Assembly: GCF_006345805.1 (NCBI RefSeq)
Contig: NC_042997.1
Coordinates: 96,410,001 to 96,474,000 of the forward strand
Length of the DNA stretch: 64,000 nucleotides
Direction of reading: 5' to 3'
Origin: Octopus sinensis
Taxonomy: Eukaryota
Below the pieces are notes generated by a model that worked only from the letters and a program-made list of their open reading frames with translations, made no database searches and was not told the origin of the DNA. Shown in pieces: positions 9,962 through 58,257 of this stretch. Within the stretch, counting starts at the first letter, position 1. The number at the start of each line of letters is the position of its first letter. A program made the position numbers and the translations under genes.

Positions 9962-10261
9962 ACAATTGCAGCGTGAAGGTGTTTTGTAAGCCTTTAAGAA
10001 CACACGAAAGCCCGGTCGATTCACTTCAACATTTAAGTTTAATTTGTCAAAATATTTTCGTCGCTAAAATCCGCGACCTGTTCACTGACAAAATCCGTGC
10101 TGCATCTGATTCTTGTATGCATCCGATTTTTGTCAGTGAACAGGTCGCGGATTTTAGCAGACCAAAATATTTTGACAAATTAAACTTAAATGTTGAAGTG
10201 AATCGAACGGCTTTTGTGTGTTTCTTAAATGGCTTATAAACACCTTTCACGCTGCAATTGT
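9962..10261. mobile_element. Fold-back element (~135 bp arms) with a hammerhead-like motif in each arm; putative Penelope-derived
   Basis: Arms 9962-10095 and 10125-10261 are reverse complements. Confidence 0.85.
10043..10092 (-). ncRNA. Minimal type-I hammerhead ribozyme motif, G3:C8 variant (second copy on + at 10129-10179)
   Basis: TTTGTCA-GTGAACA-G-GTCGC-GGATTTTA-GCGAC-GAA-A-ATAT-T-T-TGACAAA: 7 bp stem I, 5 bp stem II, palindromic vestigial stem III. Confidence 0.6.
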
Positions 10262-10262
10262 G

Positions 10263-10480
10263 TACTCTTTTACTCTCTTACTTGTTTCAGTCATTTGACT
10301 GCGGCCATGCTGGAGCACCGCCTTTAGTCGAGCTAATCGACCCCTGACTTATTCTTTGTAAGCCCAGTACTTATTCTATCGGTCTCTTTGCCGAACCGCT
10401 AAGTGACGGGGACGTAAACACCCAGCATCGGTTGTCAAGCAATGCTAGGGGGACAAACACAGGCACACTAACACACACAC
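10263..10480 (-). mobile_element. SINE family A, 3' half
   Basis: tactcttttactc...cagtcatttgactgcggccatgctggagcaccgcc, near-identical to the reverse complement of the 63000-63090 region. Confidence 0.92.
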
Positions 10481-10750
10481 ACATATATATATATATATAC
10501 ATATCTATAATATATATATACATATATATATATAATATATACATAATATATATATATTATACATATATATATAATATATATATATATATATATATATATA
10601 CTATAATATATATATAATATATATATATTAATATATATATATAATATATAAATCCGTAATAGAAGGGTGAAATTAATTAATTTGGAAAAATTATCAATTA
10701 CCCAAGTAGTCTTCGGCATGTAAAAGCCTCATTCGAGGAAAATTTAAGTA

Positions 10751-10985
10751 ATACTAAGCAATAAGGGTTTAGCAACGAGTCCTTACCACATACCGAATTT
10801 AGAAATAGCAGTCAAGGGTTATAGCTATTTCTTCTACTAAAACCTCGCGATCGTTCCAGCACACGATCGTTCCAGCACACGATCTCAGATCCCTTTTTAG
10901 TAGAAGAAATAGCTATACCCTTTGACTGCTATTTCTAAATTCGGTATGTGGTAAGGCAACTCGTGCTAACCTTATTGCTTAGTAT
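10751..10985. repeat. Fold-back element, ~90 bp arms; spacer holds a 16 bp tandem duplication
   Basis: ccacataccgaatttagaaatagcagtcaa pairs with ttgactgctatttctaaattcggtatgtgg; gatcgttccagcacac x2 in the spacer. Confidence 0.9.
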
Positions 10986-53717: not shown

Positions 53718-54889
53718 AAAGTTATTCACACATGTACACACACACACTGACACACACACACACACACACACACACACACACACACACACACACACACACA
53801 CACACACTCATTTCACATGCGCTGCTTATAATCAGCTCTGCGTGACATTTAGAGGCACCCTGCAATTTTTTGTTTCGAGACTCCATCTGTGATGGGTAGA
53901 AGCAAATATGTATTTCGTTGAAGTATCGCAGGAGACACAATCTATTCAATTTCATACATATGAGTACGGCTCTTCAGTCTCAGTTTGCCGAATTGTTAAA
54001 TTGGATCAACAGACAGAAAATACTGAACAATTTAATCGATGAACGATTCGCAGTGGAAGACACAAAGCTCTGTGGAAATCCAGTCTTGACATTTGAAATA
54101 CCAAATACTTTTGAGTGTGTGTGCGAAAGAATATCATAGCGAGAGAAGACCTATTAAATACTACAAATTACTTTAACTGTGTCTTGCCATTGATACAACG
54201 GAGTAGGAGTTTTGATGCTACCGAAGAAAAGGCAAAAACCAGTAGATATTTGATAATAACAGTCGTCAATCTAGGTTATGCTAAGGCTTGTATTATTTTT
54301 ATTAATGGTTTCTTCTTCGTGATTAGCAGGATCTGCTAGTTATAGCTATCTTTTTCAGGCAGCGTTTTGATACTGTGGTTTTATATGTAATATACCATTG
54401 CTCTTAACATAAGCTAACAGGTTATTTTTCTGAAAGTATAAAAGTGTTTCGTATGCTGTCAACAAGTAGTTTAGAGGCCATAAATTACGAACATCTCTGG
54501 GATTTGGGTTTGAAAAATTAATGTTGGATTCCCTTTCAGTAGCAAACACGATGATTCTAGAATGCTCATTAGTTCATTCAATGTTCTTAGTAAGGTGCTT
54601 CCGCCAGAAATTTAGAACTTTTCAAGTTAAAATACTATAGATTTTGTTCTTGTTTTTATGTTCCGTATCGGTTACGATGGACCATATTTTCGATACTACT
54701 ACACACACAGACACACACACGCATACATGCACGCACGCGCACAAGCACATACACACACAGAAAGTTATTCACACATGTACACACAGAAACTGACACATAC
54801 ACACACACACACATTAGACATGCGCTGCTTATAATCAGCTCCGCGTGACATTTAGAGGCACCCTGCAACTTTTTGTTTCGAGACTCCAT
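53718..54889 (+). repeat. Dispersed direct repeat of ~130-170 bp (53718-53887 and 54762-54889)
   Basis: catgcgctgcttataatcagctcYgcgtgacatttagaggcaccctgcaa..cgagactccatc occurs twice. Confidence 0.9.
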
Positions 54890-56399
54890 CCCTTTAATCA
54901 AAATTCATAATCTACACACCTTTTATTCATAGCTATCCTAAAGAATATCGTTAAAAGCACAACAAATTAAATTTATTTAGGTCTATTACAAATTGTAATA
55001 AGTAAAACTTCTAGATATGAATAGAAGAGCACTTTTATAATCCAGGCAAGTTTCGAAGACAAACAGGGCGCACTTTGCGCTTCGCGAAATCAGTTAGGAA
55101 TAATCAAGCTGAGAGCTAAGTTCGTGTTCAATAGATATCATAAGCAATCCACAAATTCTGGTACACGCTCGTGGTGCAATGTAATATGTTTACAAGAACG
55201 TTTGCAGGTATAATGTATTACTATCTTATTTCCTGAAATTTTCAGTTAACATATATAGTTTAATACTTGTTCAACATCTTAGCCAAAGTAAATAGCTGAC
55301 TTATCTACATACTTTGATCTTAACATGGAGCCCTTCAACTGCAGAGGCCCCCTGCAGTCGCAGAGGTTGCAGGGGCTTAGCAATGGCCCTGCTTATAATG
55401 TCTTACCGATATTTCGGTGTTTGCTTATTTCTTATTTGAGTCTTTTCAAAATTATAAGAATTTTGTCTCCATTTTGTTATTTAAGTATTATTTTTCAATT
55501 TTATTTATTATTATATTTATATAATGCTTGATTAGGGTTTGGCTGCAGATGTAACTCTATTAAATGTGGGCTGAGTTATCTTGGTACTATCGCAACTACT
55601 GAAGAGATTACTTCATTCAAACTGTTGATAGTATGCACATCGATTCCATGCACATAATTTCATGTCGGTTTCTATCCCAAATGTGAATTCTTTCGTAGCG
55701 TCTAAGTGTCTATATATTCTTTTGCATTTGAAGCAAGATCGCTAGTTGATTAAAGATTACTGATGTTGCAGTGTTTTCTTATTTAATACGTGTAATATAC
55801 TAATTATCAGTTGTACATACTCGGCTTGCTCAGTTTTTTTTTATTATTTTATGGTAATCAAAACGTTCATTCCATCATGACGAATGGTTCTCCTATATGC
55901 TAATTGCATTTACACCCCTGTAGAATACTGTTTAAAAAAATGTTTTGCATGAAAATCATAACTAATTCCTGCTCTAATTCAGAAAATATGTCTCGGATGC
56001 ATATCTGAGGAATCGTTCAAAACCAGTTTCATACGATACTTATTTATCTTTGGTTATAACGATTCTGCCAGAAATGTTTCAGATTCTACGGAAAACTAAC
56101 TTTAATTCAGGTTAAAATGTGATTCAGCTAGGGGAAAATTTTTAGTATGAAACGGTAAATATTAACTCAGTTTCACCAAATAGAGTGTCCTTTTAAACAG
56201 TGTGTAATATTTTGAGCCCATGATGGAACTTTCAATTTATGTTGACAAATTTCTTTAATATCTGATGCTCCGAACATACTATCAGTGAAGATTTTATTTT
56301 CATAACTTTCTTCTTTACATTCGGAGTTAAATTTCCTCTGGGGTTAAGTTCAATTTTCCTCATTTCGGGGTCGATGTAAACGTCTAGACCTATCCTTTC

Positions 56400-57480
56400 G
56401 AATTTCCGACCTTGTGCATTTAGAAAAGAAAGAGAAAACCCTTATTAGTGGTAGTGTTCTTAATGCACTTGTTTTAATTACATGGCCAAAAACTTGTTTA
56501 TTTCAATTTCAGCGTCATTGTATTTTAATTTCTCCACCTCCTTCTGGCTATTGTTTCTATCAAAATATAGGAAAAAATAAGCGTATCAATAATTTCATTT
56601 CACTATTTGATGATTGTGTCTGGATGGATTCAAGTAATTTTCTTGTCTGACATGATTGTGTAAACAACATAACATTGTCATATACGATGTTCTTTGTGTG
56701 ATAACAATATCTGCTCACTCTTGACTTCAAATGTCAATTTATTGATATATCATATAATTTGCAGAACTGCTGATACGATCGTTTCTGTAAATATAATTTG
56801 TCTTAGCAACCACTTGGCAGTATACTTGGATTTGGCAAAATTAGATACAATATGGATGTTGAACTGATGGCATAATCTGTGATTGATGTCAGCATGCCTT
56901 TCATTAAATGTTTTACTTTTTAGCTGCGTATGGTTCTGCATTGGTCGTGTGTTGTAAAATCAAACCCGATGTTTTTGCTTTTAAACAAAGAGCATCTGAC
57001 CACTATTGATTTTTGTCATAGCGTACAATGTCTATTCGTATTAGTCTACTCGTGCAGGATATTAGCTCTGAAGTTAATTTTGTCTTCATTCCTCAGAATA
57101 TTTTCGAATTCTTTTGTAATTTTGTTTTTATATCTTAAAATGTTTCCATACTTCAATCCTGATCTAAACATTTTCTTTGGTAGAGTTATTTTCCATCTTA
57201 TATTTTATTTTTCACTTATATATCGTGAAAATATATTTTTTCATGATTCTTTATTAAAGTTACATAGCTGGCTTCTAAATATTTTTCTTGCTGCTTCTTA
57301 TTTTGTAGTAGTTTTATATTTGTATCGTACACCGCCTTCTTTGGTTGGTATATTCGTTCTAAACCAATTTTAATGTCATATCTTCGAAGAAATTTCGGAA
57401 ATTTTCAACTTTTTTTGCTATTGAAGCAGTTCAATTCAAATTGAGGGCTAAAGTATGTGTTTCTACTATTATATTTCAAT
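56400..57480 (-). mobile_element. Decayed Penelope-like element (linker plus GIY-YIG region)
   Basis: Reverse-strand remnants in order: WF.., NIPTKEG, HCTL.KSIV, KTFNERHADI..KYTAKWLL (compare TFKERY..H..IKWSIL). Confidence 0.5.
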
Positions 57481-57611
57481 CATTAAGTTACGTTTCCATA
57501 TTTGTTTGACATTTTTTATAATTTACCTTTCTGTGCATTGGATTTTATCAGTTCTCTCTCTCTCTCTCTCTCTCTCTCTCTCTCTCTCTCTCTCTCCCTT
57601 CATATATATAT

Positions 57612-58257
57612 AATGATGAACGGAAGAAAATGGAGAATTATGGATGTTTAAATAATTTATTTGTATGGTTTAATGAGGTTGAAAGTCTTTTATAAAAACA
57701 ATGCAAATGAATTATAAATTATAAAACTATAAAAGAAATGGCAGATGCCAAATATCTACATATATGTTTCGATTCATGCCCCTAAATGACTGGTAATTTT
57801 AGGCATTTGGGTAAGGTCTCACTAAGAATTGGTCATGATTTTCTACTATATGGAGCAGAATTTCATCAGAGCGTTATGGGCTTATACTAGAAAAGTTAAC
57901 ACAATACATATGTTCTAACTTCTTAAACTTATTAATAATTCGTTTGCATCTTTCACGAAATATGTTAACATTTGTAGTATAAGATCATAAAACACTGTTG
58001 AGATTCTGTCTCATATAATTGAAAATGATGACCAATTTTTAGTATAAGACTCTATCCAAATACTTAGAATTAGTAATCACCTAGGGGCATGAAGCGAAAT
58101 ATATATGTAAGTTTTTGGCATCTGCAATTTCTTTTAGAGCTTTATAATGTATAATTTGTGTGTATTGCTTTTATAAAAAAAAACTTTCAACCTCATTTTA
58201 TCATACAAATAGATGATTTAAACATCTTTAATTCTCCATGTTCTTCCTTTCATCATT
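57612..58257. mobile_element. Large fold-back element (~290 bp arms, ~60 bp spacer) with a hammerhead-like motif in each arm
   Basis: Arms 57612-57902 and 57962-58257. Left arm reverse complement: CTGATGA-AATTC..GAATC-GAAA-CATATATG-TA. Right arm: CTGTTGA-GATTC..GAAGC-GAAA-TATATATG-TA. Confidence 0.85.

Follow-up and report, generated by a model that had tools for sequence, protein, structure and literature searches.

Insertions of endonuclease-positive (EN+) Penelope-like elements (PLEs) have been described as carrying an inverted, 5'-truncated pseudo-long terminal repeat (pLTR) and a one-sided tail (Craig 2021, PMC8557442, Fig. 2; Arkhipova 2013, PMC3846280), and metazoan PLEs contain minimal hammerhead ribozymes, of which dual copies occur on opposite strands, 100–700 bp from one another (Cervera and de la Pena 2014, PMC4209133). 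Two proposals exist for the origin of the inverted ends, antisense self-priming (Arkhipova 2013, PMC3846280) and reverse transcription from two internal starts on the sense RNA (Frangieh 2024, PMC11167929). In the latter work both strands were nicked and extended in vitro by the Anolis Poseidon element PAc, with two internal reverse transcriptase (RT) starts bounding the tail, and the ribozyme was dispensable for insertion (our comparisons with published work refer throughout to the accessible parts of the papers cited). Here we analyse four palindromes, E1–E4, in a 64,000-nt stretch of Octopus sinensis DNA (RefSeq assembly GCF_006345805.1, contig NC_042997.1, positions 96,410,001–96,474,000; hereafter the window, in whose coordinates features are given), and find them to be a known kind of structure from new families. 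We hold it highly probable that they are short insertions of four unrelated, hammerhead-bearing Penelope-like ends, in which the inverted second copy was likely made anew at each insertion.

The octopus families share with EN+ PLE insertions an open reading frame (ORF) for RT followed by a GIY-YIG endonuclease (in E1 and, by motif, E2), a hammerhead within the pLTR, a head-to-head inverted copy of variable length, a tail confined to one end, targets of the (TA)n type, TATA and initiator (Inr)-like motifs in the pLTR, and, in E1, a pLTR plus tail that cover the first codons. They differ in their longer tails (~60, 120 and 155 nt compared with 30–40 nt), and in that E1 yields very short copies by the thousand, whose 5' end is sharp and bears an additional G and of which we found no description in the accessible literature. 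Our model for insertion agrees with that for PAc in having two internal RT starts that bound a tail inside the ORF, extension of both strands and an uncleaved RNA template (PMC11167929), whereas head-to-head joining and cap copying, which the accessible parts of that work do not show, are proposed here. Non-LTR retrozymes (bioRxiv 10.64898/2026.07.22.740005) are likewise short, non-coding and PLE-derived with a type-I hammerhead, but form direct tandem arrays where E1–E4 copies are single or inverted; no direct tandem array of hammerhead-bearing units was found in our families, and a single pair among the 21 E4 loci was direct. No description of the E1–E4 families was found in the literature, and Repbase, Dfam, subscription papers (e.g. 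Schostak 2008) and bioRxiv supplements, which lay outside the search, may hold them. The octopus entries that a term search returned from the supplements of PMC8557442 and PMC4209133 were Naiad only (two of the four places were shown).

Probable origin of the palindrome arms as ends of Penelope-like elements

All four long inverted repeats of the preliminary description, which had been made from the sequence of the window alone, were recovered: E1 (9962–10261, self-identity 89%), E2 (arms 18800–18930/19069–19199, 92%), E3 (25216–25558, 82%) and E4 (57611–58258, 78%). They are mutually unrelated, as had been stated, with only 11–14-nt words in common (E at least 0.38), and the boundaries given earlier were sound for the inverted repeats themselves and missed the one-sided tails of E1, E2 and E4 (Table 1).

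The suggested link with PLEs was borne out by RT and GIY-YIG frames adjoining the E1 and E2 arms, and on sequence evidence these arms are the terminal repeats of longer RT/GIY-YIG elements. The arms of E4 likely belong to RT/endonuclease elements too, as may, on a weaker showing, those of E3. At one E1 locus (L134) the order is an inverted 510-bp repeat with tail, a frame with an RT thumb and GIY-YIG domain (the latter matching Pfam PF01541 above cut-off, E=1.8e-5), a long 3' region and a tail-less direct repeat, and this layout of inverted repeat with tail and direct repeat without tail was seen in four of the seven long E1 loci. An E1 open frame of 1,042 aa contains DKSG, YVDD, CxxxCxxC and GIY-YIG-like motifs, and its best named match is an Octopus vulgaris RT-domain protein (57%). 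The E1 arm appears to consist of the 5' untranslated region (UTR) and first codons, because in L264 and L266, which are probably one duplicated locus, the start of the ORF follows on in frame from arm and tail.

E2 copies have upstream sequence in common for up to 1.5 kb, reaching into RT and endonuclease frames that were recognised by motif, and in E4 an endonuclease lies upstream in one locus (L146) and is common to two others (L160/L162). The single ORF with RT followed by GIY-YIG expected of EN+ PLEs is therefore present in E1 and, by motif, in E2, and a hammerhead motif lies in the pLTR. In three loci of the E2 family (L064/L069/L138) an Asn-rich insert separates RT from endonuclease, as has been described in Penelopes of rotifers, including Adineta Pen2a. 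A CxxxCxxC linker noted in E1 is of the Neptune/Nematis type according to Craig 2021 (PMC8557442) and sets E1 apart from PAc. A group of loci around L184 was considered as a second link between E3 and an endonuclease and was rejected, as it belongs to a different family.

Hammerhead motifs

The commonest letters of each family spell CUGAUGA (E2–E4) or GUGAACA (E1), a closed stem II, GAAA, UH and stem I, with a short, mostly palindromic stem III in all four, and they read from the centre outwards as had been claimed. A type-I core in every arm, also claimed, holds for the families and fails for the window, where the full motif is found in two of the eight arms: a strict descriptor gave two matches in the 64 kb (the left arms of E1 and E3) and none in each of 40 dinucleotide shuffles. 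The six other arms are truncated or mutated, the E2 left arm being without C3, U4 and the 5' strand of stem I. Rfam Hammerhead_1 scores the E3 arms only (Table 1; the gathering threshold is 34 bits), and an Rfam search of four near-majority loci found no hammerhead. Stem I of E3 is not predicted to form, even in a lone arm.

The E1 left hammerhead has a stem I of 7 bp, a stem II of 5 bp, a palindromic loop III, U17, an extra G between positions 9 and 10.1, and a core in which the usual pair is swapped for G3-C8. This swap is fixed in the family, with G3 in 100% and C8 in 93% of 76 arms. Natural hammerheads have been reported with U3-A8 only (PMC4209133; Perreault 2011, PMC3088659) and G3-C8 is known as an engineered partial rescue (Frangieh 2024, PMC11167929); no natural G3-C8 core was found described in the accessible literature, including a term search of the PMC4209133 and PMC8557442 supplements. 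The octopus motifs otherwise resemble the minimal hammerheads of PLEs (PMC4209133) in being type I with palindromic or absent helix III, in G10.1-C11.1, in their opposite-strand pairs and, for E1, in the extra nucleotide between 9 and 10.1, and differ in the E1 G3-C8 pair and in stem II inserts of 60–90 nt in E2–E4. All core letters are kept in 13/30 E3 arms and 13/31 E4 arms, which indicates that cores decay after insertion, and conservation of the core across unrelated families likely reflects selection on active master elements and not on palindromes.

The inverted arm varies from copy to copy

The preliminary description had taken the palindromes for a recurring, non-autonomous class copied whole, and had itself named single arms with variable inversion points as the pattern that would speak against this. 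Both were found in all four families, and the arms are continuous with autonomous RT/endonuclease elements. We note that our similarity searches scored only the best 40 candidates, so that copy counts are samples, and that whole-element queries favour palindromes in the ranking.

When one E1 arm was used as the query, 15 of 30 loci had an inverted partner and 15 were single. A 17-nt word from the E1 core had 5,965 exact matches, the first 100 of which, counted by eye, included ten head-to-head pairs 25–77 nt apart and no tail-to-tail pair. In the examined loci the junction strings of the E1 head-to-head pairs were all distinct (36/36), and the ~60-nt tail was present on one arm in 33 of these 36 pairs, on neither in three and on both in none. 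An inverted partner, varying in length and never with the junction seen in the window, was found in 11 of the 28 best E2 copies; 12/19 E3 loci were inverted with differing centres and 7/19 were single, and full palindromes made up only 2/21 E4 loci, with 17/21 single. With half of the E1 loci single-armed, no fixed palindrome common to the copies, of the kind expected for a miniature inverted-repeat transposable element (MITE), was seen. Instead, the pLTR occurs direct or inverted with variable 5' truncation and the tail is on one end only, its position in the ORF start being shown for E1 only. The flanks of the copies are mostly (TA)n or (TAA)n.

Four single E1 copies outside microsatellites (L131, L109, L210 and L215) have target-site duplications of ~12–14 bp. 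At another locus (L105), flanking host DNA is also duplicated inverted around an E1 palindrome with no tail on either arm.

Proposed mechanism and the 5' ends of E1

In the mechanism that we prefer, the element protein would nick both strands of an AT-rich target, and reverse transcription would have two start points within the sense RNA, the tail end and the tail start. Both cDNAs would run toward the RNA 5' end, terminating prematurely or, by run-off, at the cap, after which the two, one per strand, would be joined head to head, a step that we infer. A hammerhead in the 5' UTR would through this geometry come to point outward in both arms, downstream of its own antisense copy, and a read-through transcript is predicted to fold into one long hairpin without the ribozyme fold. 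Nine private substitutions are mirrored in both arms among 27 E1 pairs (~0.2 expected, by hand arithmetic), which suggests that both arms came from one source.

The short E1 copies provide further evidence. There were 2,209 matches to the E1 start, and when the first 100 were sorted by eye, 34 ran on into the upstream sequence of the element, 27 started G-AG where the element has C-AG, four started G-CTYAG where the element has T, and 35 were of other kinds. Among the short copies that keep the AG, a G precedes it in 27/37 (p=1e-9 versus 25%), as it does in 19/32 E1 copies in the examined loci (which partly overlap with the 37). A TATA box lies 30 nt upstream of the E1 start A, and an extra G is known to mark mRNA cap copying in full-length L1 insertions (PMC11702581). 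We therefore lean towards the view that the short E1 copies are run-off cDNAs that extend from cap to tail and were made on uncleaved sense RNA, which would favour two sense cDNAs over antisense self-priming. Some palindromes join two G-started E1 arms, with zero spacer at C1:80202845 and a shared GC at C1:2860575.

Other sources of the extra G were considered. The upstream stretch resembles a 3' splice site, and a splice junction is disfavoured, since no sequence 5' of GAG is common to the copies; had the reverse-complemented tail served as template, GG would be expected, and this occurs in 1/27; and descent from one derived master is disfavoured by the occurrence of GAG in three sequence subfamilies that are also present as long forms. 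For a few of the extra Gs, as in L210, the target site or the opposite arm can be the source. The signature was not seen among 53 E3 matches, and no description of a cap G in PLEs was found in the accessible literature, including a term search of the PMC4209133 and PMC8557442 supplements. The short copies are without the TATA box; they insert into (TA)n, and this sequence could provide a box at -30, permitting re-transcription.

Alternative explanations

The reading of the preliminary description, in which palindromic, non-autonomous ribozyme elements undergo transcription and mobilisation as whole units with the antisense arm as a cleavage switch, is in our view very improbable. In its favour, E1 has many palindromes, which are alike in length, and folding predicts full sequestration of the ribozyme. 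Furthermore, three E1 copies (L026, L027 and L031) share one perfect join apart from point changes, and the top 40 matches of the whole-element E1 search were all full palindromes (the ranking, as said, favours these), so that a minority of E1 palindromes may have been copied whole. Core columns are also somewhat better kept than flanks (0.92 versus 0.86 in E3, 0.90 versus 0.86 in E4), and one E2 locus (L054) has a tail-to-tail arrangement, both of which sit uneasily with insertion of Penelope ends as we propose it. Mobilisation of the whole unit is nonetheless hard to reconcile with single arms, variable junctions, a one-sided tail and continuity with autonomous elements, nor would it lead us to expect that only two of the eight window arms are intact, or that fold-backs without a hammerhead share the same build. 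The assignment to PLEs is itself open to objection: the tie between E3 and an endonuclease comes from one locus (L181), at 29% to the E2 endonuclease and with another element between; neither the 1,042-aa frame as a whole nor the endonuclease pieces of E2, E3 and E4 had an RT/GIY-YIG match in Pfam; and the E2 Atlas lead was a GIY-YIG cluster at rank 8 with 11% of members. A PDB sequence search gave no match.

A Penelope origin is common ground with the next alternative, which competes on the mechanism step only and has the second arm made by snap-back self-priming on an antisense template or the first cDNA, or homogenised later by conversion. We think this unlikely, if a good deal less so than copying of the whole unit. 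Self-priming is a published proposal (Arkhipova 2013, PMC3846280) that would account for the nine mirrored private substitutions and for the small palindromes at many junctions, but at the zero-spacer G-to-G joins described above there is neither a loop nor a self-complementary 3' end, and the tail differs between arms. Signs of homogenisation are weak in old copies, where intra-copy and inter-copy similarity are 0.84 versus 0.79 (E3) and 0.81 versus 0.79 (E4). Joining of two cDNAs, which we prefer, is itself a step inferred and not observed, and it has to accommodate 100 rare substitutions that are asymmetric in E1 pairs against the nine that are symmetric and could arise by arm-to-arm conversion. 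Finally, palindromic shape and AT-rich targets might recall DNA-transposon fold-backs of the MITE type or, in the case of the shape, chimeras of long-read assembly. We give these almost no credence, as there is no fixed terminal inverted repeat, the tail is one-sided, RT/GIY-YIG frames are present, arms differ by 8–22% and opposite-strand joints are found in contigs of independent runs.

Other features of the window

The window is repeat-rich, and no host exon was evident among ORFs of at least 130 aa. Beyond E1–E4 there is a fifth fold-back of the same build that is cut below the hammerhead of its family (Table 1), which suggests that fold-backs need no ribozyme; no hammerhead was found at 10751–10985, within this fold-back, or at 5427–5717, a sixth, AT-rich fold-back with related pieces in at least five examined loci. 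The centre of the fifth holds a duplicated piece of the neighbouring E1 tail, which suggests a template jump between families. A repeat of ~470 bp resembling a short interspersed nuclear element (SINE) has many copies (10257–10504, 18096–18576, 28306–28775, 29281–29665, 38608–39069 and 62625–63098), a pair of which forms another inverted repeat (28376–29659). Broken RT/endonuclease frames of long interspersed nuclear element (LINE) type lie at 7541–9012, 16595–16999, 23211–23741 and 49719–50936, and direct tandem duplications at 36211–38236 (~1,060 bp, 97%) and 27197–28306 (~490 bp, 95%).

Table 1. Fold-back elements of the window, with their arms, tails and hammerhead motifs.
Feature	Position	Strand	Remarks
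E1 tail, ~60-nt extension	9898–9961	-	One arm only; corresponds to ORF start in full elements
E1 left arm	9962–10112	-	Putative element 5' UTR and first codons, sense outward
E1 left hammerhead, complete	10043–10092	-	Descriptor match
E1 right arm, without tail	10120–10261	+	Adjoins SINE-like repeat
E1 right hammerhead, broken	10129–10179	+	G12>C, 1-nt insertion in stem II
Fifth fold-back	10665–10990	.	Left tail, variable centre; cut below hammerhead of its family
E2 tail, ~155 nt	18648–18805	-	Left arm only
E2 left arm	18806–18932	-	5'-truncated within hammerhead core
E2 right arm	18933–19190	+	Final 258 nt of longer RT/GIY-YIG element; ends in (TA)n
E2 right hammerhead, core mutated	19058–19139	+	Reads CTGAGAA
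E3 left arm	25185–25385	-	
E3 left hammerhead, complete	25221–25323	-	~70-nt stem II insert; Rfam 32.4 bits
E3 right arm	25386–25558	+	
E3 right hammerhead	25449–25553	+	A15.1>G; Rfam 24.2 bits
E4 left arm, without tail	57611–57899	-	
E4 left hammerhead	~57751–57875	-	Core letters intact, stems damaged
E4 right arm	57900–58258	+	
E4 right hammerhead	~57989–58116	+	A6>U
E4 tail, ~120 nt	58259–58378	+	Right arm only

Antisense arms, double-stranded RNA and significance

That the antisense arm could sequester the ribozyme, as the preliminary description had supposed, agrees with modelling in which the pairing of the E1 hammerhead stems is predicted to fall from 0.67–1.0 to 0 in the whole palindrome, and whole-element folds are predicted to be hairpins of -200 to -300 kcal/mol. 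The further idea of a designed switch is not supported, with no sign of selection on the arm pair, and the blocking predicted by these models would be a by-product of insertion geometry and not of design.

Among the species compared by Porath 2017 (PMC5625713), octopus ranked first both in hyper-editing rate and in the potential of its genome for long, near-perfect double-stranded RNA (dsRNA); in the accessible parts of that work octopus repeats were not annotated, and Penelope was the heavily edited LINE-class repeat in lizard. In ~1 Mb of partly overlapping loci we found 60 further fold-backs in 40 clusters, with an outward hammerhead in only four. At L103, L116, L130 and L167 we noted additional fold-back families whose hammerheads point outward and have a palindromic stem III. 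One A>G difference at a single place in contigs of two runs was indistinguishable from variation. A joint reading, in which short E1 copies are cap-to-tail cDNAs, fold-backs are two of these joined, G3-C8 is active in the master, and Penelope fold-backs (from dozens of Penelope families) are a main source of the exceptional load of long dsRNA and of the hyper-editing in octopus, is doubtful as a whole.

The design shared by the four palindromes is thus the usual look of Penelope-like insertions and not a new class. What is new here is the fixed G3-C8 swap of E1 and its short copies with an untemplated G 30 nt below a TATA box, which, judged from their sequences, likely reveal how the element is copied. 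With ~6,000 young copies, the family provides 5' ends and joins that bear on how inverted ends arise and, if our reading is true, would record the copying step of Penelope in vivo. Short-loop Penelope fold-backs are a testable candidate source of octopus dsRNA.

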